NCBI GenBank assembly: GCA_965203555.1 | Contig: CBDBCY010000004.1 | Location: 136,961 to 200,960 of the forward strand | Length of the DNA stretch: 64,000 nucleotides | Direction: 5' to 3' | DNA from: Acidimicrobiia bacterium | GTDB lineage: Bacteria; Actinomycetota; Acidimicrobiia; Spongiisociales; ZC4RG35 | Part shown: positions 6,015-63,784 of the stretch, piece after piece | Layout of the letters: each line of letters starts with the position of its first letter | How positions within the stretch are numbered: position 1 is the first letter of the stretch | The notes under the pieces: model-generated | The model's input: only the letters and a program-made list of their open reading frames with translations | Told to the model about the DNA's origin: nothing | Databases searched by the model: none | Translations under genes and position numbers: made by a program

Positions 6015-7013
6015 ATGAGCACTGAGACTGTTCACCGAGAGGTGGTGGTTCCCAGCCAACACCTGTTGCGGGATTTGCTGGGGACCAGCGATTCCTATTT
6101 TCGGGTGCTGCAGGAGTCCTTTCCGGAGGTGCGGATGGTGGCGCGCGGTGCCAACGTTTCACTCCGGGGCCCTTCGGACGAGGTTGGTTTGGCCGAGTCG
6201 GTGATCAATGAACTTCTCCTGCTCGTACAGGAGGGCGCCTCTCTGGCCGGACAGGTCGGTTCGGTAGTGCAGATGGTCCGAGATGATCTTCCCGATCCCG
6301 CCGTCGTGTTGAGCGCTACCTTGTCGGTGGGGCGCGGCAGACTGGTAAGAGTGAAGACCCACCGCCAGTTGCTCTATGTCCAATCCATTCGGGAGAACAC
6401 CGCCACCTTCGCGGTGGGCCCGGCCGGGACGGGCAAGACCTATCTGGCCATGGCGGCGGCAGTGGAAGCTCTGACACAGGGGAGTTGTCAACGAATCGTC
6501 CTGACCCGCCCGGCGGTGGAGGCGGGGGAGCGTCTTGGCTTTCTTCCCGGCGACCTTTCCGCCAAGGTGGATCCTTACCTGCGCCCCCTCTATGATGCGT
6601 TGTGGGCGATGCTGGGACCCGATGAGACATCCCGTTTGATTGATCGGGGAACAATCGAGATCGCACCTCTCGCCTATATGAGGGGCCGAACGCTCAACGA
6701 TGCCTGCGTCATCCTGGACGAGGCGCAGAACACATCTCCCGAGCAGATGAAGATGTTTTTGACCCGGCTGGGTTTCAACTCCAAGATGATCATCACCGGA
6801 GATCTCACCCAGACCGATCTCCCCTCGGGCCGCTCTTCCGGTCTGGAAGTGGTCCGGCACATTCTTGACGGGATTGCCGGGGTGGCCTTTGTGGAACTGA
6901 CCAGCCGGGATGTGGTGCGGCATCGGGTGGTCGCCGACATTATCGATGCCTACCAGCGTTATGAGACTTCCAACTTCGCGTCGGGAGGCCGGGCGAGAAG
7001 GGCCGAGAAATGA
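6015..7013 (+). CDS. phoH: PhoH-like ATPase (YbeZ family)
   Basis: 332-aa ORF, Walker A GPAGTGKT, ILDEAQN box; conserved phoH-HD-ybeY-era neighbourhood. Confidence 0.9.
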   Translation: MSTETVHREVVVPSQHLLRDLLGTSDSYFRVLQESFPEVRMVARGANVSLRGPSDEVGLAESVINELLLLVQEGASLAGQVGSVVQMVRDDLPDPAVVLSATLSVGRGRLVRVKTHRQLLYVQSIRENTATFAVGPAGTGKTYLAMAAAVEALTQGSCQRIVLTRPAVEAGERLGFLPGDLSAKVDPYLRPLYDALWAMLGPDETSRLIDRGTIEIAPLAYMRGRTLNDACVILDEAQNTSPEQMKMFLTRLGFNSKMIITGDLTQTDLPSGRSSGLEVVRHILDGIAGVAFVELTSRDVVRHRVVADIIDAYQRYETSNFASGGRARRAEK

Positions 7014-9766
7014 CTACAGGAGATAGACGACCTCCCAGGACGGGAGAAAAGTCGCTGATCCGCGGCCTGCTGCTGGTGTCCACGGTGTTGCTGGCCTGGG
7101 CCACCCTGACCATCGGCGCCGCCAGCGGAGAAGTCGATCTGAGAGTAGGAGAGTTGGCCACCCGCAATTACGTCGCTCAGCGGAGCAGCGAGGTCACCGA
7201 CCAGGAGGCCACCGAGACTCTTCGTGAAGAGGAGGCTGCCCGAGTGGAGAGTGTCACCACCCGGGACGAGAGCATAGAACAACAGGTCAACGACGACCTG
7301 TCGCAGTTGTTCGAGGCGATCAGAAGCGGAGTGCTGGCGCCCGAACCGGAGTGGGTGGGAACCCTGTCGCTTCCTCCCACCAGTACGACCACTACAACCA
7401 CCACCGCTGCGGCCCAGCCCACGACCACCACGTCGCCGCCCACCACCGAGACGGTTCCACCCCTGCAAGGGGAAGAAACTCCCGAAGGCGGCACCGATGG
7501 TGAACAAACGCCTCCTGCCGAAAGTCAGGAACAGGAATCGGATGTAATCACTACCACCACCGAGGCGGCTCAGGCTGCTGAGACTCCCGGGACGAATGCA
7601 GTGACCACTGCGGAACAACCGGCCAGGATCAACCTCAGTGGGAGAGTTTTCCTCGATTTCGACTCGGACGCAGCCATCACCGAGTCGGGCGACTACCCGG
7701 ACTTGGGAGTGGAGTTGGTGACGGTCCGGGTCGTCTCTCTCGCCGGTGAGGGATATGACACCCAGACCGATGCCAACGGGCACTTTAGCATTGAGGTGCC
7801 GGAAGGGGTATGGGAGGTGGTGGTGGACAGCCAGGATTCTGATCTCCCTGCGGGTTTCACCATTTACCTTCCCGGGCGAAGCCAAACAGTGGTGTGTTTG
7901 GGACAGGGATCGGAGTGTGCCACGCAACCGGTTCCCTTCGTTCCGCTTCTCCGTTCCGCCCAGGTGCAAAACCAGGAGTTGATCCGTTCCTACCCGCAGT
8001 TGAACACTGGCACGGTGGCCACCATGGTGGAGGTTGCCCGCAACGATGTGATCCGGCAGGTATCGGACATTGCGCCCGGCTTGGTGGAGATCGAGAGGGC
8101 GGCCCTTACCTTGATGGTCGAATCTTTTGCCAACGAGATCAAGAGTGAGGACCTGCTCTCGGCCCAGAGCAGTATCCTGTCGGATCCGCCGGTGGTGTTC
8201 ATTGACAATGTGCGCAACCCGGCGGCTGGCGAAGCGGCCGCCGACATCGCCGCGTCCTTCCTGCGCCCGAATTCCCTGCTCGACACCCAGGCCACGGAGG
8301 AGTTGCGACAAGCGGCTCGAGAAGCCTTGGAAGAGGTTACGGTCTCCTATCGTTCGGGGCAGCCCATAATCGCCGAGGGCGAGCCTCTCACCCGACTGGT
8401 CATCGATGTCATATCGGCGACCGGAGCCGCCACCGGAAGACCCGTGCAGGAGGCCGGTGTGCTGGTGGTCCTGGGGGCGGTGGTGGCGGTGTTGTCTCTC
8501 TTCCTCTACAGGTTCCGCCTCGATCTTTGGGAACAGATCCCGCTGCTCACCCTGTTCGGGCTTCTCACCGTGCTGGCGGCCGGCGCGGTGCGGGGCGCCA
8601 CCTTCATAGGTGAGGTATTCGGATACGAAGTGGGCGTATATCTGCTCCCAGCGGTGGCTTTCGGGTACTTGACGGCGGTTCTCTTGGACAACCGGGTTGG
8701 GCTCCTGATGGCTATTGTCCTGGCGGTGGTGACGGCGGTCGGCACCCGCGACCCCGGCGCGACCACCTACGCGCTGCTGGCCACCCTGGCGCCGGTGGGA
8801 TTCGTCTCGGCGGCCTCGAGTCGCCGGGCCTTCCGCAATTCGGTGGCGGTCTCCGCGGCGGCCTTGGCGGTTATCGCAGCGGCCACTGCGTGGATATTTC
8901 ACACCAGCATCGCCCAGTCTCCGGTGGGGGTGATGCTGCAGGCGGGGGTGCTGGCGTTCGCCTCCACCCTGATAGCCGCTCTCGTGGCCCTGGCGTCCAT
9001 TGCCTTTTTCGAAGGCATCTTCGACGTGACCACCACTCTCCGTTTGCTCGACTTGACCGATCGCAACCACGAGGCCCTGCAATTGCTGCAAGAGAAGGCT
9101 TTCGGTACCTTCAATCATTCCCTGATGGTGGGGACGCTGGCCAGCGCGGCGGCAAAGGCGATCGGGGCCAACAATCTCTTGGCTCGCGCGGCCGCCTATT
9201 ACCACGATCTGGGTAAGACGGAGAACCCCGGATTCTTTATAGAGAACCAGTTCGGCGCCGTCAATCCGCATGACGAGATGAGACCCGAGGAGTCCGCCGA
9301 GGTGATCCGCCGGCATGTGTCCGACGGCATAAGCCTGGCGACCCGCTATCAAATCCCCTCATCGGTGAGGGAGGGGATCCTTACTCATCACGGCACCGGG
9401 ATAATACGCTATTTCTACGACAAGGCCCTGGGCTTGTACGGGGAGGAAAACGTCGATGTGGATGACTATCGACACATTGGGGCGAAGCCCCGATCCAAGG
9501 AAATGGCCATTGTGATGCTGGCCGACGGGGTGGAGGGAGCATGCCGGGCCGCTTTCCAGGTCAATTATGGGGAAGGCGCTCCTCCAGAGCCCACCCTGCA
9601 AGCCATTGCTGCGGTGATAGACGGGATCATCCGTGAAAAGATGTCCGATTACCAGTTGAGCGAAGCCTCCCTCACCTTCAGCGAACTTCAGGCGATTCGC
9701 AATGCCTTCGCGGAAGCGATGGCGGGTCACTACCATCAGCGCATTCGATACCCCAACTTTCCCTGA
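7010..9766 (+). CDS. 7TM-receptor HD/HDIG-domain membrane phosphohydrolase (PgpH-like) with long N-terminal extracytoplasmic extension
   Basis: 918-aa ORF; N-terminal TM, Thr/Pro-rich linker, multi-TM block (about 8450..9000), C-terminal HD domain (AAYYHDLGK ... ILTHHGTG). Confidence 0.85.
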   Translation: MTTGDRRPPRTGEKSLIRGLLLVSTVLLAWATLTIGAASGEVDLRVGELATRNYVAQRSSEVTDQEATETLREEEAARVESVTTRDESIEQQVNDDLSQLFEAIRSGVLAPEPEWVGTLSLPPTSTTTTTTTAAAQPTTTTSPPTTETVPPLQGEETPEGGTDGEQTPPAESQEQESDVITTTTEAAQAAETPGTNAVTTAEQPARINLSGRVFLDFDSDAAITESGDYPDLGVELVTVRVVSLAGEGYDTQTDANGHFSIEVPEGVWEVVVDSQDSDLPAGFTIYLPGRSQTVVCLGQGSECATQPVPFVPLLRSAQVQNQELIRSYPQLNTGTVATMVEVARNDVIRQVSDIAPGLVEIERAALTLMVESFANEIKSEDLLSAQSSILSDPPVVFIDNVRNPAAGEAAADIAASFLRPNSLLDTQATEELRQAAREALEEVTVSYRSGQPIIAEGEPLTRLVIDVISATGAATGRPVQEAGVLVVLGAVVAVLSLFLYRFRLDLWEQIPLLTLFGLLTVLAAGAVRGATFIGEVFGYEVGVYLLPAVAFGYLTAVLLDNRVGLLMAIVLAVVTAVGTRDPGATTYALLATLAPVGFVSAASSRRAFRNSVAVSAAALAVIAAATAWIFHTSIAQSPVGVMLQAGVLAFASTLIAALVALASIAFFEGIFDVTTTLRLLDLTDRNHEALQLLQEKAFGTFNHSLMVGTLASAAAKAIGANNLLARAAAYYHDLGKTENPGFFIENQFGAVNPHDEMRPEESAEVIRRHVSDGISLATRYQIPSSVREGILTHHGTGIIRYFYDKALGLYGEENVDVDDYRHIGAKPRSKEMAIVMLADGVEGACRAAFQVNYGEGAPPEPTLQAIAAVIDGIIREKMSDYQLSEASLTFSELQAIRNAFAEAMAGHYHQRIRYPNFP

Positions 9767-12388: not shown

Positions 12389-12654
12389 ACTGCTCGTTCG
12401 GGCAGATACGAACCCCCGCTGGCGGCGAGTGTTCGTGCCGCGGAGGGTTCTGTGCCTCTGTTATCTCGGGGTGAAAGCAGGGAAGTATGTCGAGATTTGG
12501 GGAGGGGCTACCTGTGGTTTAGTGCAAGGCGTGGGCCGATGACCCCAATGGTGGGGGTCCTCCACAATTCGGGTGCGTGAGATCGGAGGCCAGGAGCGAG
12601 TATGTGCAGGGAGAGCAAGGCATCCGGACACCGATGGGTTCCCCCTCTTTCCGG

Positions 12655-12888
12655 CTATCGCTTATCGAGATACTCCAAGACCTGTCGGAAACCCCGGTCG
12701 AGTTTCTCGTCCGTGGCCTGACGATTCACGTCTATTTTGACGTTGAGCAGGTGAATGTCGTGTTTCACCTCGGCGAAATCGTGTTTCACTTCGGCGATAT
12801 CCTGTTTCACCTCCGCGATGTCGCGTTTCACCTCGGAGATGTCGTTCCCGATGCGTCTCTGCAGGCTGTTGAGGGCATCGGCGGTCAT
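12655..12888 (-). CDS. Small coiled-coil protein, paralog 1 (77 aa), unknown function
   Basis: ORF MTADALNSLQRRIGNDISEVKRDIAEVKQDIAEVKHDFAEVKHDIHLLNVK...; heptad repeats DIxEVKx; AAGGA 10 nt upstream of the ATG. Strand choice is not certain (see rejected). Confidence 0.5.
   Translation of the reverse strand: MTADALNSLQRRIGNDISEVKRDIAEVKQDIAEVKHDFAEVKHDIHLLNVKIDVNRQATDEKLDRGFRQVLEYLDKR
12760..12843. repeat. 4 x 21-bp in-frame tandem repeat (consensus gtgtttcacctcggcgatatc)
   Basis: Units at 12760, 12781, 12802 and 12823; each encodes one DIAEVKx heptad on the minus strand. Confidence 0.8.
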
Positions 12889-13130
12889 CGAAGCGACGTC
12901 CTTGGCGTCATGCTTCCCGAGTATATCCGGGATCGGCTGTCAATGCCACAGACGCGTCCGCTGCTTGCCTGTGATCTCATCCGGTCCGTCCACCGCGTTC
13001 CAGGATCATCTTCTCTTTGTTCAGCGTCCTTGCTCTGGTAGCGGCCCTCTGTCGGGAGATCGGGAGAGTCGTTTCAATGTAGCAGGGATAGCATGGCAGT
13101 CGGACACCGATGGGTTCCCCCTCTTTCCGG

Positions 13131-13367
13131 CTATCGCTTATCGAGATACTCCAAGACCTGTTGGAAACCCCGGTCGAGTTTCTCGTCCGTGGCCTGACGA
13201 TTCACGTCTATTTTGACGTTGACCAGGTGAATGTCGTGTTTCACTTCGGCGATGTCCTGTTTCACCTCCGCGATGTCGCGTTTCACCTCGGAGATGTCGT
13301 TCCCGATGCGTCTCTCCAGGCTGTTGAGGGCATCGGCAGTCATCGAAGCGATGTCCTTGGCGTCCAT
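13131..13367 (-). CDS. Small coiled-coil protein, paralog 2 (78 aa; 70 aa if started at the conserved internal ATG at 13343)
   Basis: ORF MDAKDIASMTADALNSLERRIGNDISEVKRDIAEVKQDIAEVKHDIHLVNVK...; same family as 12655..12888 but one heptad shorter. Confidence 0.5.
   Translation of the reverse strand: MDAKDIASMTADALNSLERRIGNDISEVKRDIAEVKQDIAEVKHDIHLVNVKIDVNRQATDEKLDRGFQQVLEYLDKR
13236..13298. repeat. 3 x 21-bp in-frame tandem repeat (same family as 12760..12843)
   Basis: Units at 13236, 13257 and 13278. Confidence 0.8.
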
Positions 13368-13595
13368 GCTTCCCGAGTATATCCGGGATCAGCTATCAAG
13401 GCCACAGACGCGTCCGCTGCTTGCCTGTGATCTCATCCGGTCCGTCCACCGCGTTCCAGGATCATCCTCTCTTTGTTCAGCGTCCTTCTTTTGGCAACGG
13501 CTCTCAATAACACAGAAACCAATGGCGCAGACCAAGGCCGTTCGTTTACTGAAGTAGAGCATTTTGCTGTTGTCTGATATCCTTATTGGTGCATT

Positions 13596-16500
13596 ATGAA
13601 AAAAATAATGGCAGCCAACCGGGGGGAGATAGCCGTCCGGATCATGAGGGCCGCGACGGAACTCGGTTTGCGAACTGCAACCATCTACTCGAACGAGGAT
13701 CGCTACAGTCTGCACCGTTTCAAGGCGGACGAAGCTTACGAGATCGGAAGCGACAAGGGGCCGGTGGCGGCCTACCTTGACATCGACGGGATTATCACTC
13801 TGGCCAGGGAGAGAGGGGTGGACGCCATCCATCCCGGTTACGGGTTCCTGTCCGAGAATGCCAGGTTCTCGCGAGCATGTGCGGAGGCCGGCATCACATT
13901 CATCGGCCCGCCACCCGAGTTGCTTGAAGCGCTCGGCGACAAGACCGCGGCGCGGCGACTGGCTGCGCAGGCCGGGGTACCCACCGTCCCCGGCACCGGT
14001 CTGGCGCCCGATGATCCCCGGGAGATTGTCCTCAGTGCGGAATCGGTGGGCTTTCCGCTGATAGTCAAGGCGTCGTTCGGCGGCGGCGGTCGGGGTATGC
14101 GAGTGGTCAACAGTCCCGATGAACTGCTGGGCAGGCTGGAGGAGGCGCGGGGGGAGGCTCAGCGTACTTTCGGGGACGGCTCTGTCTTCCTGGAGCGTTA
14201 CATCGCCCGGGCCCGCCACATCGAAGTGCAGATTCTGGCCGACTCGCACGGCTCGGTGGTCCACCTTTGGGAGCGTGATTGCTCGGTACAGCGGCGCCAT
14301 CAGAAAGTTGTGGAACTGGCGCCGGCGCCGAATCTGGCGGATCAACTCCGCGACGAGATTTGTGCGGCGGCCATCCGGGTTGCCCGGACAACCGGTTACG
14401 TCAATGCCGGCACCGTCGAGTTCCTGGTGGATGCTGATACGGGTGAGTGGTTCTTCATGGAGGTCAACCCGCGAATCCAGGTGGAGCACACCGTTACCGA
14501 GTTGGTGACCGGTGTCGACCTGGTCCGGTCGCAGATTCTGGTGGCGCAGGGATGCCGGCTCCACGAGGCGCCCCTTTCCATCCCTGCGCAGAGCGAAATC
14601 CCTCGTCGGGGAACCGCCATACAGTGCCGCATAACGACCGAGGATCCCAAGAACGAGTTCTCCCCTGACTACGGGCGCCTGCAAACTTACCGCAGCCCGG
14701 GAGGTTTGGGGATCCGACTCGATGGAAATGCCTATACCGGGGCGGTGCTCAGCCCGTTTTACGATTCGCTCCTGGTCAAACTCACCGCGTCGGATACCAA
14801 CCTGCCCGACGCCTGCACCCGGGCCGACCGAGCCTTGCAGGAGTTCCGGGTCCGGGGTGTCGAAACCAACATTCAGTTTCTGCGCAATGTCATCAACCAT
14901 CCCGATTTTCGCAACGGCGTGGTAACCACCCACTTCCTGGAGGAGACGCCCGAACTCTTCGAAATACGACCGCCTCGTGATCGCGCCAACCGGCTGCTGA
15001 GCTATATCGGCGACACCATCCTCAACGGGAATCCCACCGTGGTGGGCAAGGACCATCCGACGAATCTGAATGCCCCTCCCATAGTGCCGGTGGACATGAG
15101 TGCCGAGCCTCCGCCCGGTACCCGGGATCTGCTGCTGGAGATGGGACCGGACAAGTTCGCCGAGTGGGTCTGGGATCAAAAGCGCCTTCTGGTGACCGAC
15201 ACCACTTTCCGTGACGCACATCAGTCGCTTCTGGCAACTCGGGTGCGCACCTACGATTTGTTGGGTACGGCCGGGGCAGTGGCGCGGCGTCTGTCGAACC
15301 TGTTCAGTGTCGAGATGTGGGGCGGCGCGACCTTCGACGCAGCGTTGCGTTTCCTGTACGAGGACCCGTGGGAGCGTTTGCGTCTGATGCGCGAGGCGAT
15401 TCCCAACATCTGTTTCCAGATGCTGCTGCGAGCTTCCAATGCGGTGGGCTACACCAGCTATCCGGACAATGTCGTGCGTGAATTCACCATTGAGGCCGCC
15501 CGGCAGGGGATCGATGTTTTCCGGGTTTTCGACTCCCTGAACGACGTGCGCAACATGGAGGTGGCGATCGAGGCGGTGCGCAGCACTCATGCCGTTTGCG
15601 AGGCCGCCATCTGCTATACGGGCGATCTCCTCGATCCGGATCGCCCCAAATACAGTCTCAACTATTACGTGAACCTTGCCCGCCGTCTACAGGAGATGGG
15701 GGCGCACTTACTGTGCATCAAGGACATGGCGGGGCTGTGCCGTCCTTATGCCGCCGACCAGTTGGTGAGGGTCCTGCGGGAGGAGGTGGGCATTCCGATC
15801 CACTTCCATACCCACGACGCCAGTGGTATCCAGGCGGCGACTCTCATAAAGGGGGGCGAGGCCGGGATAGACATCATAGACGCGGCCGTGGCGGCGGTGT
15901 CGGGTTCCACCAGCCAACCCAACCTGAATACGATGGTCGGTTCGCTGGAAGGTACCGAACGCGACACCGAACTCGACTCGGATGCCTTGGGCGATTGCTC
16001 CCTTTTCTGGGAGACGGTGCGTACCTACTACCAACCCTTCGACAACTCTCCCAAGTCCGGCAGTGCCCGGCTGTACGACCATGAGATCCCCGGCGGGCAG
16101 TTCACCAATTTGCAACAGCAGGCGACCGCGCTGGGCCTGGGTCAACGCTGGCGAGAGGTAGAAGAGATGTACGCGGATGTCAACCAGATGCTGGGGGACA
16201 TTGTGAAGGTCACTCCGTCCAGCAAAGTGGTCGGCGATCTGGCTCTGTTCCTGCTCTCCAAGGGGATGACGTGCGATGAGGTGCGAGGGCTTCCTCCCGA
16301 CCACAACATCGGATTCCCCGAATCGGTGGTTGACATGATGCGAGGGTCGCTCGGTGAGCCTCCCGGCGGTTGGCCCGAGGACATTCGAGAGATACTGCTG
16401 TGCCGCAACCGGCCTATCGAGGGACGGGCGGGCGCCAAACTCCCCAGCGCCGACATCGGTGCGGCCGTAGAGACGGCTACGGAGTTGCTGGGACATCGAG

Positions 16501-17036
16501 CAGGGTGGGCCGACGGCCTGAGCTACCTGCTCTATCCGGTTGAGTTCCAAAAATTCGCCGAGACGCGTCGCAAGTTCGCCGATGTCGGCTTGCTTCCCAC
16601 TCCTGTCTTCTTCTACGGACTGGAAGAAGGAGAAGAGTGTGTGTTCGATATCGAGCCGGGGAAGCGCTTGATCGTAAAGTTCCACACCGTAGGTGAACCG
16701 CAGCCCGACGGAACCCGCACGATCTTCTTCGATCTCAACGGAGCCCCCCGTGAGGTCAGGATTCGGGACCGGTCACTGCAATCCGACCGGCCGGCGGCTC
16801 GCAAGGCCGACAGCGGGAACCCGCAACACATCGGGGCGCCCACCCCGGGGGTTGTTACCGGCGTATTCGTAGCCGTCGGGGATGAGGTGACTGCCAACAC
16901 CAAACTGCTGACGCTGGAAGCGATGAAGATGCAGAGCACCATCTACGCACCGGACGCCGGCCGGGTGAAGGAACTGTTGATTCAGGCTGGTAGCCAGGTC
17001 GAGGCCAAAGACCTGCTGGCGGTTCTGGAGTCTTGA
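13596..17036 (+). CDS. pyc: Pyruvate carboxylase
   Basis: 1146-aa ORF: biotin carboxylase N-terminus, carboxyltransferase TIM-barrel domain, C-terminal biotinyl domain with EAMKMQ. Confidence 0.95.
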   Translation: MKKIMAANRGEIAVRIMRAATELGLRTATIYSNEDRYSLHRFKADEAYEIGSDKGPVAAYLDIDGIITLARERGVDAIHPGYGFLSENARFSRACAEAGITFIGPPPELLEALGDKTAARRLAAQAGVPTVPGTGLAPDDPREIVLSAESVGFPLIVKASFGGGGRGMRVVNSPDELLGRLEEARGEAQRTFGDGSVFLERYIARARHIEVQILADSHGSVVHLWERDCSVQRRHQKVVELAPAPNLADQLRDEICAAAIRVARTTGYVNAGTVEFLVDADTGEWFFMEVNPRIQVEHTVTELVTGVDLVRSQILVAQGCRLHEAPLSIPAQSEIPRRGTAIQCRITTEDPKNEFSPDYGRLQTYRSPGGLGIRLDGNAYTGAVLSPFYDSLLVKLTASDTNLPDACTRADRALQEFRVRGVETNIQFLRNVINHPDFRNGVVTTHFLEETPELFEIRPPRDRANRLLSYIGDTILNGNPTVVGKDHPTNLNAPPIVPVDMSAEPPPGTRDLLLEMGPDKFAEWVWDQKRLLVTDTTFRDAHQSLLATRVRTYDLLGTAGAVARRLSNLFSVEMWGGATFDAALRFLYEDPWERLRLMREAIPNICFQMLLRASNAVGYTSYPDNVVREFTIEAARQGIDVFRVFDSLNDVRNMEVAIEAVRSTHAVCEAAICYTGDLLDPDRPKYSLNYYVNLARRLQEMGAHLLCIKDMAGLCRPYAADQLVRVLREEVGIPIHFHTHDASGIQAATLIKGGEAGIDIIDAAVAAVSGSTSQPNLNTMVGSLEGTERDTELDSDALGDCSLFWETVRTYYQPFDNSPKSGSARLYDHEIPGGQFTNLQQQATALGLGQRWREVEEMYADVNQMLGDIVKVTPSSKVVGDLALFLLSKGMTCDEVRGLPPDHNIGFPESVVDMMRGSLGEPPGGWPEDIREILLCRNRPIEGRAGAKLPSADIGAAVETATELLGHRAGWADGLSYLLYPVEFQKFAETRRKFADVGLLPTPVFFYGLEEGEECVFDIEPGKRLIVKFHTVGEPQPDGTRTIFFDLNGAPREVRIRDRSLQSDRPAARKADSGNPQHIGAPTPGVVTGVFVAVGDEVTANTKLLTLEAMKMQSTIYAPDAGRVKELLIQAGSQVEAKDLLAVLES

Positions 17037-23199: not shown

Positions 23200-25284
23200 A
23201 TGCGTCAGGTGCCCCTGAGTCGCACCCGCAATATCGGAATCATGGCCCACATCGATGCAGGAAAGACCACTCTGACCGAGCGGATTCTTTACTACACCGG
23301 TCGCAACTACAAAATCGGGGAGGTCCACGAGGGCGCCGCCACCATGGATTGGATGGCACAGGAGCAGGAGCGGGGAATCACCATCACCTCTGCCGCCACC
23401 ACCTGTATCTGGCACGATCACAGCATCAACATCATCGACACTCCGGGTCATGTCGATTTCACCGTCGAGGTGGAACGTAGTCTTCGAGTCCTGGATGGGG
23501 CGGTGGCGGTATTCGACGGGGTGGCGGGAGTGGAACCACAGTCGGAGACGGTGTGGCGGCAGGCCGACCGCTACGAAGTTCCCCGCATCTGCTTCATCAA
23601 CAAACTCGACCGACTGGGGGCGGACTTCTTCGCCGATGTGGAATCGATCCGCACCCGACTCAACGCAACACCTCTGGTGGTCCAACTGCCCGTGGGTGAG
23701 GAGAGTGATTTCCGAGGTGTTCTGGACCTGGTGGAAATGCAGATTCACGAGTGGCGGGGGGACGACGGCAGGCACTGGGACACCGGCGACATCCCCGAAT
23801 CGATGCAGGACCTGGCTTATGAATACCGGGCGCGGATGTTGGAGCAGGTAGCCGAGGTTGACGAGAAACTCCTGATCAAGTTCCTCGAAGATCTGTACAT
23901 AACCCCCGACGAGATCCGAACCGCTATCCGTACGGGGGTGCTTCAGCACATGTTCGTGCCGGTGCTTTGTGGTGCGGCCTTCAAGAACAAGGGAGTGCAG
24001 CCGCTGCTTGACGCCATTGTCCACTATCTGCCCAGCCCCTTGGACCTTCCTCCGGTGAAGGGTTTCGCCCCCAAGAATCCGGAACAGGTTCTGGAACGGA
24101 AGGCCAATGACGACGAGCCATTTTCGGCTCTCGCCTTCAAGATCATGAGCGATCCCCACGTCGGCAAGCTCACCTATTTCCGGGTCTATTCGGGCTCGGT
24201 CTCCAAGGGCGGCGCGGTGTTCAATACCACCAACGGCAAGAAGGAGCGCCTGGGACGGCTGCTTCGCATGCATGCCAACCATCGTGAGGATGTCAACATT
24301 GTTTACACCGGTGACATCGTGGCGGCGGTGGGATTGCGACACACCACCACCGGCGACACCCTTTCCGGTGTCGGTCACCCCATCAGCCTGGAATCGATGG
24401 CCTTTCCCGCGCCGGTTATCTGGGTAGCCATCGAGCCTCGCACCAGGGTTGACCAGGACAAGTTGTCCGAGTCCCTGCAAAAGCTGTCGGAGGAGGACCC
24501 GACCTTTCTGGTGAGAAGTGACGAAGAGACCGGGCAAACCATCATCTCGGGAATGGGCGAGCTCCACCTGGAGGTATTGGTGGACCGGCTGATCCGGGAA
24601 TTCAAGGTCGCGGCCAACATCGGTAAGCCGCAGGTCGCCTATCGAGAATCAATCCTGTCGGCCGTAGAGAAAGTGGAAGGCCGTTACGTCCGCCAGAGTG
24701 GCGGCCGGGGTCAGTACGGTCATGTCGTCATCGACATCGAACCCACCGGTCCCGGAGGAGGTTACGAATTCGTCAACAAGATCAGGGGCGGTCGCGTCCC
24801 CCGTGAATACATTCCGGCGGTGGCCGCCGGCATCGGAGAGGCTCTCGATGGGGGTATCCTGGCGGGCTACCCGGTGGTGGATGTGCGGGTCACCCTGGTT
24901 GACGGTTCACATCATGAAGTAGATTCTTCCGAACTGGCCTTTCGGATAGCCGGTTCCATGGCTGTTCGCGCCGCCACCAACAAGGCGGGGCTGAAACTGC
25001 TGGAGCCGGTGATGGAAGTCGAGGTGGTCACTCCCGACGAGTACATGGGAGACGTGATCGCCGACATTTCCGCTCGCCGGGGCCGTATTGGAGAAACCGA
25101 TCAGCGGGGATCGGCCCGGCTAATCACCGCCGCCGTACCGCTGGCCGCAATGTTCGGCTTTGCTACTGATATCCGGTCCAGGACTCAGGGGCGAGCAACG
25201 TATTCGATGCAATTCAAGGCTTACCAAGATGTTCCTGACTCTATTTGTCAGGACATCCTTCATTTGAGAACTGGTAAGTATTAG
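23200..25284 (+). CDS. fusA: Elongation factor G
   Basis: [28 protein letters not shown] motifs. ATG 23200 gives the usual N-terminal length; in-frame GTG 23167 is an alternative. Confidence 0.95.
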
Positions 25285-26497
25285 AAATGGGGGTGTTTGG
25301 TTGTGGGTAAGGTGAGGTTTGAGCGGGTGAAGCCGCATTTGAATGTGGGTACTATGGGTCATATTGATCATGGGAAGACTACGTTGACTGCTGCGATTAC
25401 TAGGGTGTTGTCTGAGCGGGTTGGTGGGGTGAATGTGGTGACTGGGTTTGATGATATTGATCGTGCTCCTGAGGAGCGTGAGCGGGGTATTACGATTCAG
25501 ATTGCGCATGTTGAGTATGAGACTGTTTTGCGTCATTATGCGCATGTGGATATGCCGGGGCATGCGGATTATATTAAGAATATGATTACGGGGGCGGCTC
25601 AGGTGGATGGGGCGGTGTTGGTGGTGTCGGCGGTTGATGGTCCGATGCCGCAGACTCGTGAGCATGTGTTGTTGGCGCGGCAGGTGGGTGTGCCGCGGAT
25701 TGTGGTGTTTTTGAATAAGTGTGATTTGGTGGATGATGGTGAGTTGTTGGATTTGGTGGAGTTGGAGGTTCGGGATTTGTTGACGGAGTATGAGTTTCCG
25801 GGTGATGATGTTCCGGTGGTGAGGGGTTCGGCGTTGTTGGCGTTGGAGGGTGATGTGGTGGCTGGTGATGGGGTTATGGAGTTGATGGATGCGGTTGATG
25901 GGTATGTTGATGTGCCGGTTCGGGATGTGGATCGTCCGTTTTTGATGCCGATTGAGGATGTGTTTTCGATTACTGGTCGGGGTACGGTGGTGACTGGTCG
26001 GGTTGAGCAGGGTGTGTTGCGGGTTGGTGAGGCGGTTGAGGTGGTTGGTTTGCGTGATACGCGTGGGTCGGTGGCTACTGGTGTGGAGATGTTTAGGAAG
26101 TTGTTGGATGAGGGTCGGGCTGGTGATAATGTGGGGGTGTTGTTGCGGGGGGTGGGGAAGTCGGAGGTGGAGCGTGGTCAGGTGTTGGCTGCTCCTGGGT
26201 CGATTTTGCCGCATGTGGGTTTTGAGGCGCAGGTGTATGTGTTGACGAAGGAGGAGGGGGGGAGGCATAATCCGTTTTTTTCGGGTTATCGTCCGCAGTT
26301 TTATTTTCGGACTACGGATGTGACGGGTTCGGTGTTGTTGCCTGTTGGGGTGCAGATGGTGATGCCGGGTGATAATGTGGAGTTGTCGGTGGAGTTGATT
26401 GCTCCGATTGCGATGTCGGTGGGGTTGGATTTCGCGATTCGTGAGGGTGGTCGGACTGTGGGGGCGGGTCGGGTCACCAAGATCACCAAATAACCCC
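25283..26497. repeat. 1,215-bp block apparently identical to 61421..62635 (tuf plus 20 nt of leader and 4 nt after the stop)
   Basis: Identical translations in sense, sense-shifted and antisense frames for both copies, plus spot checks of the nucleotide lines at offset 36138. Confidence 0.9.
25303..26493 (+). CDS. tuf: Elongation factor Tu, copy 1 (tufA-like position after fusA)
   Basis: [24 protein letters not shown] motifs. GTG 25303 gives [12 protein letters not shown], matching canonical EF-Tu length; ORF track opens at TTG 25297. Confidence 0.95.
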
Positions 26498-26583
26498 AAA
26501 CCCAAGAAGGCAAAGGATTGTGGACAACAACCGGCAAGGGCAAGTAGAGAATAAGCCGAGCAAGCGAGGACAGTAGAAGAGAC

Positions 26584-26895
26584 ATGAACGGTTCCCATAA
26601 GATCCGCATAAAGCTCAAGGCTTATGACCATCAGAGTGTGGATGAGTCAGCGCGCAAGATCGCTGCTACGGTTACTCGTACCCAGGCCAAAATAAGAGGT
26701 CCTGTTCCGTTGCCTACCGAGATCCACAGATACTGCGTTATACGCGGACCCCATGTCGATAAAGACTCCCGGGAACACTTCGAGATGCGCATTCATAAGC
26801 GGTTGATCGATATCTTGGATCCAACCGCTAAAACGGTTGATTCATTGATGCGCCTTGATCTTCCTTCCGGAGTGGAAGTAGAGATAAAGCTGTGA
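26584..26895 (+). CDS. rpsJ: 30S ribosomal protein S10
   Basis: 103-aa ORF, S10 homology, head of the S10 operon. Confidence 0.95.
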
Positions 26896-45930: not shown

Positions 45931-45989
45931 GAAAGGAGGAATTTCCCACCCCACAACTCGGCGTGCAGCGGAGTTATCTCACAACAAAC

Positions 45990-46150
45990 AAGCGCCAGGC
46001 CTCTTGAACCGCCGGTCGGCGGATTCCGGAGGTGACGAGGAGGAAGGCGATCGAATCTTTCGGCGGATGCCTTTCCGGCCACCACAGTCGTGACGATCGG
46101 AGCAAATCCCGCCGGTAACGGCGGGGACAAAAGACGGTCGAAGTGGAGCG
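45990..46150 (+). ncRNA. glmS: glmS ribozyme / GlcN6P riboswitch
   Basis: Directly upstream of glmS: AGCGCCAGG (45991) ... GACGAGGAGGAAGGCGATCGAATCTTTCGGCGGATGCCTTTCCGG. This closely matches the remembered Bacillus core GACGAGGAUGGAGGUUAUCGAAUUUUCGGCGGAUGCCUCCCGG. A downstream hairpin CCGCCGGTAACGGCGGGG and GACAAAAGA follow. Ends are approximate. Confidence 0.75.
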
Positions 46151-46196
46151 TTCCGCAATGCGCGCGCAGAGGGGGTTTGTGGAAATTGGCGCGATC

Positions 46197-48032
46197 ATGT
46201 GCGGAATAGTTGGTTATGTTGGCTCCCGCCCTGCTCGAGATTTGTTGCTGGGTGGTTTGGCCCGGTTGGAGTACCGGGGCTACGACTCGGCGGGAATGGC
46301 TATCGGTCAGAACGGCGCATTGACAAGTGTCCGACAGGTTGGAAAGATCTCCGATCTGGCCGCGGTGGTCCAGGAAGGTTCGGAGTCTTTCCCCGGGGGG
46401 TATGGAGTCGGGCATACCCGATGGGCGACTCACGGGGCGCCCACCACTCCCAATGCTCACCCTCACTTCGATTGCTCGGGGGAGGTGGCGATCGTCCACA
46501 ACGGGATTATTGAGAATTGGACGGAGTTGAAGGCTTGGTTGGAAGGCCGGGGGCACGGATTTGCCTCCGACACCGACACGGAGGTGGCCGCCCATCTCAT
46601 CGAGGAACTGTCTTCGCTCCCCCTGTCAGAGGCAGTGGCGCAGGTCCTGCGACGCTGTGAGGGCGCCCTGGCCCTGGCGGTGATTCGCCGCTCCGATCCA
46701 GGGCTGGTTGTGGGAGGTCGGAAGGGAAGCCCGCTGGTGATCGGCCGGGGATCGGGGGAGAATTTCCTGGCTTCCGACATCCCTGCGTTCATGGCCCATA
46801 CCCGTCGCATGATGGTGGTTCCCGAAGATCGGGTGGTGGAGATCCGCTCGGACTCGGTGCGCATCACCGACCTACGCGGACAGGAGCAGGAACCAGAGGA
46901 ACGGGAGGTGGAATGGGACGTGGAGGCCGCCGAGAAGGGCGGCTATCCCACTTTCATGCTCAAGGAGATATACGAGCAGCCCAAAGCCGTGGCGGAGACC
47001 CTGTTGGGACGCATCAGTTCCACCGGTCTGCCCATGCTGGAGGAAACGGGAGTGACCGCCGAGATTGCCAAGGACGTGGACAAGGTGTTCGTGGTGGCCT
47101 GCGGTACCTCCTATCACGCCGGGATGATGGCCAAATACGCATTGGAGCGATGGGCGAAGCTTCCGGTGGAGGTAGATCTGTCCTCGGAGTTCCGGTATCG
47201 AGATCCGGTTCTCAACTCCCGCTCGCTGGTGATCGGCATCAGCCAGTCGGGAGAGACTGCGGACACTTTGGGCGCGATCCGATATGCGCTCGGACAGGGC
47301 GCCCGGGTGGCGGCGGTGACCAACGTGGTCGGATCGTCGCTGGCCCGAGAGGCGCACATGGTGCTGCAAACCAGGGCGGGCCCCGAAATCGGAGTGGCGG
47401 CTTCCAAGACCTTCATCACCCAGATGGCCCTGCTTCAACTATTGGGTCTGCATATGGCCATCGAGCGAGGCGTGATGAGTCCCGCAGAAGCGGCAGGGCC
47501 GGTGAATGCGCTGCGCAGCCTGCCTGATCGGCTCGATGAAGTGTTGGGCCTTTCCGATCAGATGCTGGAGTTGGCGCAGGAGTGGCGGGACGTGCGAGAT
47601 TTCTTCTTCCTGGGCAGGTCTGTCGACTATCCGGCGGCTCTGGAAGGCGCCTTGAAGCTGAAGGAATTGTCCTATGTGCGAGCCGAGGGTTATGCGGCCG
47701 GTGAGATGAAGCACGGTCCCATCGCCCTGATCGAGCCGGGAGTGGTGGTGATCGGAGTGGCCACCGACCGCCGGCTGCGTCCCAAGATGTTCTCCAATCT
47801 CTCGGAGATGAAGGCGCGGGGCGGTACGGTGGTGACCCTGGTCGGAGAGGAGGACCGGGCCGAGGCGGCAATCACCTCCGATCTGGTGATAACCCTTCCC
47901 GAAGACGCTGATCTGATCGGAGCGGTGCTGGCAGTGGTTCCGCTGCAACTCTTCTCCTACCACCTTGCCACCCTCAAGGGACTGGACGTCGACCAACCCC
48001 GCAACCTTGCCAAGACGGTGACCGTGGAGTAG
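46197..48032 (+). CDS. glmS: Glutamine--fructose-6-phosphate aminotransferase
   Basis: ATG 46197 gives the obligatory MCGIVGY N-terminus (Cys2 nucleophile); two SIS domains; ends ...TVTVE. ORF track opens at 46143. Confidence 0.95.
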   Translation: MCGIVGYVGSRPARDLLLGGLARLEYRGYDSAGMAIGQNGALTSVRQVGKISDLAAVVQEGSESFPGGYGVGHTRWATHGAPTTPNAHPHFDCSGEVAIVHNGIIENWTELKAWLEGRGHGFASDTDTEVAAHLIEELSSLPLSEAVAQVLRRCEGALALAVIRRSDPGLVVGGRKGSPLVIGRGSGENFLASDIPAFMAHTRRMMVVPEDRVVEIRSDSVRITDLRGQEQEPEEREVEWDVEAAEKGGYPTFMLKEIYEQPKAVAETLLGRISSTGLPMLEETGVTAEIAKDVDKVFVVACGTSYHAGMMAKYALERWAKLPVEVDLSSEFRYRDPVLNSRSLVIGISQSGETADTLGAIRYALGQGARVAAVTNVVGSSLAREAHMVLQTRAGPEIGVAASKTFITQMALLQLLGLHMAIERGVMSPAEAAGPVNALRSLPDRLDEVLGLSDQMLELAQEWRDVRDFFFLGRSVDYPAALEGALKLKELSYVRAEGYAAGEMKHGPIALIEPGVVVIGVATDRRLRPKMFSNLSEMKARGGTVVTLVGEEDRAEAAITSDLVITLPEDADLIGAVLAVVPLQLFSYHLATLKGLDVDQPRNLAKTVTVE

Positions 48033-61103: not shown

Positions 61104-61185
61104 GCCGGGATACCCAAGCGGCCAAAGGGAGCAGACTGTAAATCTGCCGGCGATGCCTTCGGAGGTTCAAATCCTTCTCCCGGCA
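61104..61185 (+). tRNA. tRNA-Tyr (anticodon GTA), long variable arm
   Basis: Acceptor GCCGGGA/TCCCGGC, anticodon stem-loop GCAGA-CTGTAAA-TCTGC, T arm GGAGG-TTCAAAT-CCTTC; CCA not encoded. Confidence 0.9.
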
Positions 61186-61209
61186 CCGGCTTTCCCGCAA
61201 AGACCAAGC

Positions 61210-61283
61210 GCCCCCTTAGCTCAGACGGCCAGAGCGCCTCCATGGTAAGGAGGAGGTCTCCGGTTCGAATCCGGAAGGGGGCT
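61210..61283 (+). tRNA. tRNA-Thr (anticodon GGT)
   Basis: Acceptor GCCCCCT/AGGGGGC, anticodon stem-loop CCTCC-ATGGTAA-GGAGG, T arm TCCGG-TTCGAAT-CCGGA. Confidence 0.9.
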
Positions 61284-61314
61284 CCCCCGTGCGGCCCGCG
61301 CCGACTACGGGTAA

Positions 61315-61388
61315 AGGCGGCGTAGCTCAGTTGGTAAGAGCGCTCGACTCATAATCGAGAGGTCGGCAGTTCAAGTCTGCCCGCCGCT
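61315..61388 (+). tRNA. tRNA-Met (anticodon CAT), elongator type
   Basis: Acceptor GGCGGCG/CGCCGCT, anticodon stem-loop CTCGA-CTCATAA-TCGAG (no GGG/CCC initiator signature), T arm GGCAG-TTCAAGT-CTGCC. Confidence 0.88.
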
Positions 61389-61420
61389 ACATGGAACCAA
61401 AGACAGCTATCGATAAATAC

Positions 61421-62635
61421 AGAAATGGGGGTGTTTGGTTGTGGGTAAGGTGAGGTTTGAGCGGGTGAAGCCGCATTTGAATGTGGGTACTATGGGTCAT
61501 ATTGATCATGGGAAGACTACGTTGACTGCTGCGATTACTAGGGTGTTGTCTGAGCGGGTTGGTGGGGTGAATGTGGTGACTGGGTTTGATGATATTGATC
61601 GTGCTCCTGAGGAGCGTGAGCGGGGTATTACGATTCAGATTGCGCATGTTGAGTATGAGACTGTTTTGCGTCATTATGCGCATGTGGATATGCCGGGGCA
61701 TGCGGATTATATTAAGAATATGATTACGGGGGCGGCTCAGGTGGATGGGGCGGTGTTGGTGGTGTCGGCGGTTGATGGTCCGATGCCGCAGACTCGTGAG
61801 CATGTGTTGTTGGCGCGGCAGGTGGGTGTGCCGCGGATTGTGGTGTTTTTGAATAAGTGTGATTTGGTGGATGATGGTGAGTTGTTGGATTTGGTGGAGT
61901 TGGAGGTTCGGGATTTGTTGACGGAGTATGAGTTTCCGGGTGATGATGTTCCGGTGGTGAGGGGTTCGGCGTTGTTGGCGTTGGAGGGTGATGTGGTGGC
62001 TGGTGATGGGGTTATGGAGTTGATGGATGCGGTTGATGGGTATGTTGATGTGCCGGTTCGGGATGTGGATCGTCCGTTTTTGATGCCGATTGAGGATGTG
62101 TTTTCGATTACTGGTCGGGGTACGGTGGTGACTGGTCGGGTTGAGCAGGGTGTGTTGCGGGTTGGTGAGGCGGTTGAGGTGGTTGGTTTGCGTGATACGC
62201 GTGGGTCGGTGGCTACTGGTGTGGAGATGTTTAGGAAGTTGTTGGATGAGGGTCGGGCTGGTGATAATGTGGGGGTGTTGTTGCGGGGGGTGGGGAAGTC
62301 GGAGGTGGAGCGTGGTCAGGTGTTGGCTGCTCCTGGGTCGATTTTGCCGCATGTGGGTTTTGAGGCGCAGGTGTATGTGTTGACGAAGGAGGAGGGGGGG
62401 AGGCATAATCCGTTTTTTTCGGGTTATCGTCCGCAGTTTTATTTTCGGACTACGGATGTGACGGGTTCGGTGTTGTTGCCTGTTGGGGTGCAGATGGTGA
62501 TGCCGGGTGATAATGTGGAGTTGTCGGTGGAGTTGATTGCTCCGATTGCGATGTCGGTGGGGTTGGATTTCGCGATTCGTGAGGGTGGTCGGACTGTGGG
62601 GGCGGGTCGGGTCACCAAGATCACCAAATAACCCC
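61421..62635. repeat. Second copy of the 1,215-bp tuf block (partner of 25283..26497)
   Basis: Same evidence as copy 1. After the identical part, similarity continues about 10 nt across a 2-nt C-run indel. Confidence 0.9.
61441..62631 (+). CDS. tuf: Elongation factor Tu, copy 2 (tufB-like position after a tRNA cluster)
   Basis: Translation identical to copy 1; located 52 nt after tRNA-Met on the same strand. Confidence 0.95.
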
Positions 62636-62696
62636 CCAAACCCAAAGACTGACGCCAATAGCGCAAGAAGCCAGGACGTAAGAAAGAAAGCAACCG

Positions 62697-62888
62697 ATGC
62701 CAAGTGACAAGAGACCCCCGGTGAAACTTGCCTGCACCGAGTGCAAGCGGCGCAACTACGTGACCACCCGCGGCAGGGCGAACCAGCACGACAAGGCGCA
62801 GCGCCGCAACCTCGTGCGAGGCCGGTTGGTGCTTCGCAAGTACTGTCGGTGGTGCCGCATTCACACTTCCCACCGGGAAACGCGATAG
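62697..62888 (+). CDS. rpmG: 50S ribosomal protein L33
   Basis: 63-aa [15 protein letters not shown] ... [14 protein letters not shown] zinc-ribbon pattern. Confidence 0.88.
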
Positions 62889-62929
62889 GCCAGGCCAAGG
62901 CGTCTGCTTCCAAGGGGGTGGCCGGCCAG

Positions 62930-63784
62930 ATGACTCTCGCCGATCTGGAGGGCATGGTTTTCGGGCCCGAGCCCCTGCGGGTTTCCAGGGACCGCGTCGC
63001 CGCCTACGTGGAGGTAACCGGCGACCAACCCGATCGATGGGGCGATGTCGCTCCGCCCGGCATGGCCGGCGCCGCGTTGTTTGCGGTAGCTCCCACGTTG
63101 CTTTCTCATCCGGCGGTTATGGCCGAGGGCGGTGCGGCGATTCACGGGGAGCAGGTCTTCATATGGAAGGCCCCACTTCAGGCGGAGGCAACCTGGTCGG
63201 TGGTAGGTGAGGTCAAGCGGGTGCGACATCGTCGGGGCGTCTGGTTTGTGGACTTTTCCGCAGCCGTCGCCGACTCCCATGGCGGGACAATGGTGGAGGG
63301 CAGGTCTTCTTTCCTGATCGCCGGAGGTAGCCCGCCGGCTCGGAGCGGGACGGTGGATACCGAACCGCCTCCCCATCACCGTGCCGACAACCGACCGGCG
63401 TCCGGCGCCGACCTTCCCGAGGTGGGCTGTGAGACTCCCACGCTCTCCAAATCGGCGAGTCGTGCGGATCTGATTCGCTACGCCGCGGTCACCAGGGATT
63501 GGAATCCGATCCACTGGGATCATCAGTCGGCGGTGGGAGCGGGGCTTCCGGGCGTGGTGGTGCACGGATTGGCCTGCGCAGCCTGGATGTGCCAGGGCGT
63601 CACCCGGTTGCTGGACGGAGAGGCGCCCATTGGTAGAGCCAAGTTCCGGTTTCGGCGGCCGCTACGCCCCGCGGTGTCCGCGCAGGTGGAGGGCAGGCGG
63701 ACCGGTGAAGACCGGTTCGCAATGCGTTTGGTCTCGGAAGGACACGTTCTCATCACAGCCACGATGGAGACGGCGCTCCATTAG
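62930..63784 (+). CDS. Double hot-dog (3R)-hydroxyacyl-ACP/CoA dehydratase, fused HadA-like + HadB-like (MaoC) domains
   Basis: C-terminal half carries the hydratase-2 motif (AAVTRDWNPIHWD); N-terminal half is a non-catalytic hot-dog. ATG 62930 (or GTG 62918); ORF track opens at 62741 inside rpmG. Confidence 0.8.
   Translation: MTLADLEGMVFGPEPLRVSRDRVAAYVEVTGDQPDRWGDVAPPGMAGAALFAVAPTLLSHPAVMAEGGAAIHGEQVFIWKAPLQAEATWSVVGEVKRVRHRRGVWFVDFSAAVADSHGGTMVEGRSSFLIAGGSPPARSGTVDTEPPPHHRADNRPASGADLPEVGCETPTLSKSASRADLIRYAAVTRDWNPIHWDHQSAVGAGLPGVVVHGLACAAWMCQGVTRLLDGEAPIGRAKFRFRRPLRPAVSAQVEGRRTGEDRFAMRLVSEGHVLITATMETALH

Follow-up and report, generated by a model that had tools for sequence, protein, structure and literature searches.

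The stretch analysed here (64,000 nt of contig CBDBCY010000004.1, assembly GCA_965203555.1, from an Acidimicrobiia bacterium; hereafter the window) carries two copies of tuf, the gene for elongation factor EF-Tu, and opposite each of them a long open reading frame (ORF) runs on the minus strand (Table 1). An earlier sequence-only reading of this DNA had taken these two minus-strand ORFs to be a by-product of the NNK pattern of the tuf codons (K, i.e., G or T at the third position), and had considered them worth excluding as real antisense products. Our analysis indicates that both ORFs are non-coding shadows, and that what lies behind them is an enrichment of the keto bases (G and T) and a depletion of the amino bases (A and C) confined to the sense strand of tuf. 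To this joint statement we assign a probability of about 0.9.

The tuf loci and the frames opposite them

The product of tuf belongs to a family of more than 8000 EF-Tu homologues carrying PF00009, PF03144 and PF03143; no exact match to the EF-Tu of the window was on record, and relatives were used for comparison. At copy 1, fusA ends 12 nt 5′ and rpsJ starts 90 nt 3′ of the gene. The tRNA genes immediately 5′ of copy 2 probably share a transcript with it, as in tufB-type operons, and the relatives have the same tRNA-tuf arrangement and the same two genomic contexts of tuf. Sequence identity between the copies extends from 14 nt 5′ of the TTG that opens the ORF to 4 nt 3′ of the stop codon, and the identical block is best read as the gene-converted unit of tuf. 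As expected for concerted evolution, two tuf paralogues are found in different contexts with an identity that stops near the borders of the coding sequence (CDS). In three relatives the copies differ from each other at 0-6 positions, in lineages where species differ at ~5% of the tuf sites and at ~50% of the four-fold sites of the flanks. No other gene is duplicated in the window, and an Rfam scan gave no match within or opposite tuf. In two metagenome loci of relatives (L101 and L115; G+T fraction at codon position 3 of tuf, 0.91 and 0.65) the order is fusA-tuf-rpmG; here tuf has the upstream surroundings of one copy and the downstream surroundings of the other, which suggests a rearrangement via the tuf repeats.

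Table 1. Features of the window discussed in the text (position 1 is the first nucleotide of the window)
Feature	Position	Strand	Remarks
tuf copy 1 (EF-Tu)	25297..26493	+	Order fusA-tuf-rpsJ; from ORF and translation
tuf copy 2	61435..62631	+	tRNA-Tyr/Thr/Met, tuf, then MaoC-like dehydratase gene
Repeat block	25283..26497 = 61421..62635		1215 nt, 100% identical; repeat family D1; by extension of exact identity
GGGGG run, Shine-Dalgarno-like	25289..25293 (copy 2: 61427..61431)	+	9 nt 5′ of GTG 25303; within the identical block
tuf 3′ tail, GTC ACC AAG ATC ACC AAA TAA	26473..26493 (copy 2: 62611..62631)	+	Escapes the bias
tRNA-Tyr(GTA), tRNA-Thr(GGT), tRNA-Met(CAT)	61104..61390	+	Immediately 5′ of tuf copy 2
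Shadow ORF 1	25120..26631	-	503 aa; codon-aligned antisense of tuf copy 1; starts inside rpsJ, ends inside fusA
Shadow ORF 2	61387..62955	-	522 aa; same frame opposite tuf copy 2; different flank extensions
Longer shadow ORF	6959..9352	-	797 aa; opposite 7010..9766
Longer shadow ORF	13389..15590	-	733 aa; opposite 13596..17036

The coordinates and lengths that had been given for the two minus-strand ORFs were borne out, and so was the difference between their N- and C-terminal extensions, which lie in the non-homologous flanks. The starts of the full-length ORFs consequently fall in different, unrelated flanking genes. Within the repeat the antisense codons are the exact reverse complements of the tuf codons, as a check of the frame alignment confirmed, and the antisense frame has no stops because TTA, CTA and TCA are absent from the codon table of tuf. 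The statement that every sense wobble base is G or T proved too strong: it holds without exception for codons 1-378 and for 392 of the 399 codons in all, the others being TTC (codon 379) and the GTC, ACC, ATC, ACC, AAA and TAA of the 3′ end (codons 393, 394 and 396-399). As nearly all tuf codons end in G or T, the antisense codons begin with C or A, and this is the source of the 11-letter amino acid alphabet that had been described for the antisense translation; it accounts for 393 of the 399 codons in the repeat, and D, E, F and G occur besides it, at the 3′ end of tuf and at codon 379.

An open frame opposite tuf is common. A stop-free codon-aligned antisense frame over the whole gene (i.e., no TTA, CTA or TCA in the sense frame) was present in 108 of 163 tuf genes sampled from genomes and metagenomes, and in 42 of the 49 with a locus GC content of 0.60-0.65. 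Under the codon usage of the window itself, the probability of finding no antisense stop in 397 codons is 0.165. The open frame is hence no more than chance would give; the NNK pattern is more. The view of the frame as a by-product of NNK can be kept as far as its shadow nature is concerned, but NNK is not needed for the frame to be open, since most high-GC tuf genes have an open frame. Nor is the frame the longest one of the window opposite a single gene, as had been claimed, because two other minus-strand frames, the longest of the many shadow frames present, exceed it (Table 1). The latter lie opposite ordinary genes, and stop-free antisense frames are common in this 61% GC genome.

The differences between related tuf genes were then read in both frames. 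Between the window and L001, a relative with a 96% identical EF-Tu, 60 codons differ: in the sense frame 47 of the differences are synonymous and 13 non-synonymous, whereas in the antisense frame 8 are synonymous and 52 non-synonymous, and the other sequence pairs gave the same picture. The third-position differences of this pair are exchanges between G and T in 50 of 52 cases, 25 in each direction. The frequency of G-T exchange at four-fold sites of tuf (0.19-0.22) is not below that of the flanks (0.145-0.16 in fusA, rpsJ, rplC and rplD, taken as the probability of the other keto base given a keto base), so that the first position of the antisense codons shows no slowing. To judge from these comparisons, the antisense translation is under no purifying selection or constraint.

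The searches that had been proposed as checks were also carried out. The antisense translation gave no Pfam match and no independent homologues; a search of 5.8 billion protein clusters returned 36 matches, all of them singletons that map opposite tuf genes in assorted bacteria and are best regarded as sporadic miscalls antisense to tuf. Miscalls of this kind are hence already present in the public protein databases, and annotators should not treat the 503-aa and 522-aa ORFs as genes. Promoter-like (sigma-70-like) sites were found on the minus strand at neither tuf copy, no Shine-Dalgarno (SD)-like motif precedes any of the 10 in-frame antisense ATGs, and the gene calls on the contigs of the relatives include no antisense gene. 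The predicted antisense product would contain 15% His, 13.5% Arg and nearly no acidic residues. The substitution pattern, the homologue search, the expression signals and the gene calls thus support the proposal of a compositional shadow without a real antisense product.

The keto bias and its distribution

The noteworthy object at these loci is the sense-strand bias itself rather than the antisense frame. When the G+T fraction at codon position 3 (K3) was calculated for the 410 ORFs of the window with 50 aa or more (mean 0.50, standard deviation 0.08), tuf was the only one with a value above 0.8. In addition, all 35 Leu codons of tuf are TTG, though CTG and CTT also fit NNK. In fusA, K3 is 0.50 and the ratio of TTG to CTN codons is 6/50, and CTN is likewise favoured in htpX (4/31) and in the ribosomal-protein genes scored for Leu codons, rplC (3/12) and rplD (3/13). 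The long ORFs of the region have a K3 near 0.5, and the ribosomal-protein genes, fusA and groEL range from 0.42 to 0.57, with groEL at 0.42. In rpsJ (26584-26895) and its L001 and L082 orthologues the wobble T/(T+C) is 0.43-0.52, against 0.19-0.35 in fusA, rplC and rplD, in a small sample of saturated lineages.

The relatives carry the same bias in different degrees. The K3 of tuf is near saturation (0.98-0.99) in L001, L081/L082, L083 and L171/L172, whose EF-Tu identities to the window are 88-97%; it is 0.87-0.94 in further lineages, 0.78-0.82 in Ilumatobacteraceae and 0.64-0.73 in Microthrixaceae, and in other Actinomycetota and other phyla it lies at 0.36-0.6. The flanking genes are normal in every biased lineage: their T/(T+C) is 0.0-0.5 and their TTG/CTN ratio ~0/45, whereas tuf has values of 0.35-0.99 and up to 34/0. 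In L061, for example, these measures are 0.61 and 23/6 for tuf and 0.08 and 0/44 for fusA. The bias is natural and heritable, and it recurs in graded form (K3 0.73-0.99) across a set of Acidimicrobiia lineages. A synthetic or recoded artefact could be ruled out, because independent public assemblies carry the pattern with different sequences. In a rough neighbour-joining tree one coherent biased clade includes the window, and the other biased lineages are scattered among unbiased ones, so that the trait looks labile.

The direction of the bias was analysed from the outgroup-to-window changes at codon positions 1 and 2. All four changes from an amino to a keto base exceeded their reversals (A>G, 36.6 forward and 4.1 reverse; C>T, 29.4 and 2.6; A>T, 20.3 and 2.2; C>G, 12.5 and 4.9), and the exchanges between A and C and between G and T were symmetric. 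By these counts the bias is one of keto against amino bases, transversions included. Plain deamination of cytosine and adenine as the sole cause was therefore ruled out: the transversions are equally directional, and the flanks and untranslated regions (UTRs) are spared. Which of the two keto bases stands at a given site is free, and it is the composition that is maintained, not any motif. Once the synonymous sites are saturated, as the comparison of proteins shows, the bias spills over to codon positions 1 and 2 and alters the composition of EF-Tu, which at saturation contains 16.4% Val, 11.9% Gly, 2.5% Lys and 4.0% Ile, against 9.9%, 9.4%, 5.8% and 6.8%, respectively. The tuf mRNA of the window consists of 42% G, 31% U, 15% A and 12% C, that of an unbiased relative of 32% G, 14% U, 20% A and 34% C; the C/G ratio, 1.06 in the unbiased relative, drops to 0.44 in an intermediate and to 0.29 in the window. 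An essential gene has been purged of nearly every replaceable A and C of its coding strand, with consequences visible in the amino acids of EF-Tu.

The bias is distributed unevenly along the gene. In a subset of the intermediates every one of the first 60 codons ends in G or T, and values along the middle of the gene lie mostly between 0.65 and 1.0. Most intermediates retain ordinary C-ending codons over their last 20-40 positions. This exempt 3′ tail is reduced to about six codons in the saturated lineages, and nearly all biased lineages have their last 6-40 codons and their UTRs spared; the tail in the window (Table 1) retains the ancestral C/A-ending codons. Two-fold NAC codons were the slowest to change in the intermediates. 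The UTRs of tuf are A/C-rich. On the two sides of the gene, the last 25-100 codons of fusA have a K3 of 0.56-0.68 in saturated lineages and of 0.40-0.50 in the intermediates L168 and L166, and the first 50 codons of rpsJ have a K3 of ~0.6.

The translation signals of tuf differ with the degree of bias as well. Because the EF-Tu proteins of the relatives have 396 aa, the true start of tuf is probably the GTG at 25303 rather than the TTG with which the ORF opens. Saturated lineages have a GGGGG run followed by this GTG (or by a TTG two codons further upstream), and less biased relatives have an AGGAG-type SD and an ATG. The nucleotide pressure thus appears to have reshaped the initiation signals also (AGGAG to GGGGG, ATG to GTG).

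Possible causes of the bias

Among the causes considered, selection on the tuf mRNA, rather than on the DNA or on an antisense product, is the most likely, ahead of biased gene conversion and of transcription-linked mutation; taken by itself it falls a little short of even odds. The bias tracks the translated region of tuf. EF-Tu has obligatory G at codon position 1 and U at position 2, and a purge of C and A would remove the Watson-Crick partners of these bases, so that the coding and initiation regions would stay weakly structured. The loss of C would also strip the transcript of the sites preferred by the actinobacterial RNase E, which cuts 5′ of C. Furthermore, Rho needs C-rich, G-poor RNA, and this character would be lost too. 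Such a protection may matter most for tuf, given that co-transcription with tRNA genes would yield, at one of the two copies, a transcript that starts without a coupled ribosome and has a processed 5′ end.

The predicted properties of the mRNA are consistent with this proposal. The predicted minimum free energy of the tuf mRNA is -382 kcal/mol, against -516 ± 15 kcal/mol for the same protein written in the codon usage of the flanks (seven codon-usage references, the pyruvate carboxylase ORF 13596..17036 among them), and the initiation region pairs only weakly with its own mRNA (mean duplex energy -9 kcal/mol; unbiased relatives, -17 kcal/mol). Compared with the neighbouring genes, C is depleted and G enriched in the tuf mRNA, as an evasion of RNase E and Rho would require. 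Among wobble alphabets without A, G/T gives the least structure; as the structure-minimising alphabet outright it had to be rejected, because the advantage holds only among A-free alphabets. An extra selection on the arrangement of the codons for low structure was likewise rejected, since a synonymous shuffle with the same usage gave -378 kcal/mol, against the -382 kcal/mol of the natural order.

The G/U-rich initiation region (25283-25314) was found to be strongly complementary to the A/C-rich last codons and 3′ UTR (26463-26503), and the same holds for copy 2. With duplex energies of -22.6 and -23.8 kcal/mol this pairing ranks first among 235 windows. As a conserved pairing this was discarded: it is weaker or absent in the close relatives L001 and L171/L172, and it is probably a by-product of composition.

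Several points weigh against what is proposed here. As to the shadow nature of the minus-strand ORFs, sequence alone cannot show that translation is absent. As to selection on the mRNA, the ribosomal-protein genes, fusA and groEL of the window show no bias; a scaling with expression level therefore fails, and a reason specific to tuf must be assumed. Designs with A/G-, A/T- or A/C-ending codons are less structured than the G/T design, so that minimising structure can be the explanation only if something else bars A-ending codons. Evasion of RNase E and Rho covers the loss of C and the gain of G, but not the 9:1 excess of A>T over T>A, and no firm account can be given of why the last 6-40 codons are exempt. 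Finally, cleavage 5′ of cytidines (RN|CNU) is known for the RNase E of mycobacteria only (PMC10641625).

The first alternative to selection on the mRNA places the force in recombination between the two copies. In this hypothetical new drive, analogous to GC-biased gene conversion, a strand-polar conversion between the tuf copies would depend on NucS. A heteroduplex would form between the resident sense strand, serving as the lagging-strand template, and the incoming antisense strand of the other copy. Where the resident has G or T and the donor A or C, a G·T, G·G or T·T mismatch would be recognised by NucS, the mismatch endonuclease of actinobacteria, and the incoming strand rejected; the reciprocal A·C, A·A and C·C mismatches would go unrecognised, so that G/T alleles would spread to both copies and A/C alleles be erased. 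NucS is known to recognise only G-G, G-T and T-T, and to reject these in recombination with lagging-strand oligonucleotides (PMC11551744). The substitution classes of tuf match this specificity, with A/C to G/T driven and the G-T and A-C exchanges symmetric. The status of tuf as the sole duplicated gene of the window, with fully identical copies here and the like in the relatives, also agrees with it, and the bias begins at the 5′ edge of the homology block. Besides, the cumulative GC skew rises over the window, which makes the plus strand probably the leading one, and a drive would account for fixed amino acid changes in a protein as conserved as EF-Tu. Against this stands the pair L173/L174 from Actinomycetota, whose co-oriented copies differ at 2 of 1185 nt and have a K3 of only 0.40; gene conversion as a sufficient cause is ruled out by this unbiased converting pair. 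In the biased L167/L168, L171/L172 and L081/L082, moreover, identity between the copies extends over the unbiased 3′ tail and a further 30-65 nt of 3′ UTR that is not G/T-rich, which calls for the extra assumption of a strong polarity, and the predicted direction hangs on an unproven recombination route. We consider this explanation improbable.

A further alternative, to which we give slightly less weight, is a mutational asymmetry associated with transcription: the non-template strand of the most heavily transcribed gene would become accessible as single-stranded DNA, perhaps within R-loops that its G-richness favours, and would lose A and C by deamination or alkylation, with the template strand preferentially repaired. 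Coding strands with an excess of G+T are the classical mark of an asymmetry linked to transcription and replication, C>T and A>G outnumber the other classes of change, and the bias of several intermediates, complete over the first ~60 codons and dropping near the 3′ end, also speaks for such a process. The limits of the bias argue otherwise. The adjacent or co-transcribed fusA, rpsJ and UTRs are unaffected, with sharp borders at the start of tuf and before its stop codon, and synonymous C is kept in the last tuf codons; other highly expressed genes are normal. Furthermore, the A>T and C>G transversions are strongly directional as well, and the four-fold G-T flux is only ~1.3 times that of the flank, when a mutation bias of more than 100-fold would be required.

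Translational selection, under which G/T-ending codons and TTG would be optimal for a special tRNA pool or modification state of the clade, is largely refuted and very improbable. It would suit the fact that tuf is the most highly translated gene, and the two-fold NAC codons that resist longest in the intermediates show that translation does weigh on the outcome. However, the ribosomal-protein genes, fusA and groEL use C-ending codons and CTN, the bias is not uniform along tuf, where the last 20-40 codons of intermediates keep their C-ending codons, and it reaches codon positions 1 and 2, the SD and the start codon.

Least probable of all is that the antisense frame is a real gene for a His/Arg/Leu/Ile-rich protein, with a selection on composition only that would have created the NNK pattern: the frame is open across the whole of tuf in both copies, and tests of the dN/dS type (non-synonymous against synonymous rates) are blind to such a selection, but NNK far exceeds what openness needs, open frames being the norm opposite tuf, TTG in place of CTG or CTT brings no gain in openness, the bias is graded among lineages and fades at the 3′ end of tuf, which would be the N-terminal part of the antisense product, and the unconstrained residues, the unrelated starts at the two copies and the lack of minus-strand signals and of independent homologues in the searches above all speak against it.

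It is conceivable, though unlikely, that an evolutionary force not recognised before has acted on this one gene and left its mark in the keto-only recoding of tuf, be it a mismatch-specific strand-polar biased conversion or a selection for a nearly A/C-free mRNA. Such a force would be strong enough to override codon optimisation and to replace a sizeable fraction of the residues of EF-Tu. The gene offers a rare natural experiment on forces that act below the codon level, with lineages at 40%, 75%, 87% and 99% available for comparison, and makes it testable whether selection on the nucleotides of an mRNA, or a bias of recombination and repair, can override codon optimisation and protein conservation.

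Apart from tuf, the window contains a tandem duplication at 12606-13505 (period about 456-476 nt, 92-97% identity) between an Era-like GTPase gene and the pyruvate carboxylase gene. It has no G/T enrichment, and each of its copies carries a minus-strand ORF of 77-78 aa (12655..12888 and 13131..13367) with heptad-like DIAEVK repeats. A glmS ribozyme/riboswitch (Rfam RF00234, 86.7 bits) lies on the plus strand at 45980-46150, directly 5′ of a 629-aa ORF (46143..48032).

Comparison with known systems

An excess of G+T on leading and coding strands and the purine loading of mRNAs are well-known strand asymmetries; their size is a few per cent, and they extend over replichores or transcription units. 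The bias of tuf has the same direction (keto bases on a coding and leading strand), but it reaches 98-100% at the synonymous sites, is limited to one CDS without the UTRs and the 3′ tail, and includes transversions. In the literature on tuf codon usage, keto skew and Acidimicrobiia we found no description of a tuf-specific, polar and near-total keto enrichment, and the bias is apparently an undescribed, extreme form of gene-specific codon or strand bias.

The work on the RNase E of actinobacteria (PMC10641625) offers a reason for a long-lived, C-poor mRNA in Actinomycetota. It leaves the loss of A unexplained, the part used here describes no C-purged gene, and the word tuf occurs nowhere in its text. 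The concerted evolution of tufA and tufB (PMC6053082) is closer to the loci of the window: the contexts are likewise fusA-tuf and tRNA-tuf, the identity likewise covers the CDS and a few nucleotides, and Actinobacteria are listed among the phyla with converting tuf duplicates. The portion of that study considered here mentions no compositional consequence of conversion, and the unbiased converting pair L173/L174 exists.

Two cases bear on the antisense frame. In Pseudomonas aeruginosa, two long antisense overlapping genes have been reported as translated and under purifying selection (PMC8850804). As in the window, an annotated gene of a GC-rich bacterium has a long ORF embedded in it on the opposite strand; unlike those genes, the frame opposite tuf shows neither constraint nor start signals, and its only homologues are tuf shadows. 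The closer counterpart is the shadow ORF that arises from codon bias in GC-rich genomes, as known from ORF statistics (PMC3454372), which is also codon-aligned and open through the absence of TTA, CTA and TCA; a related case is a 'pseudoambigrammatic' virus, reported to have an extreme bias of GC at the third position (bioRxiv 10.1101/2025.03.14.643323). The two frames opposite tuf differ from these GC-rich shadows in that the underlying bias is NNK (G/T) instead of NNS (G/C), the product uses an 11-letter alphabet, and the frame spans an entire gene in two identical copies.

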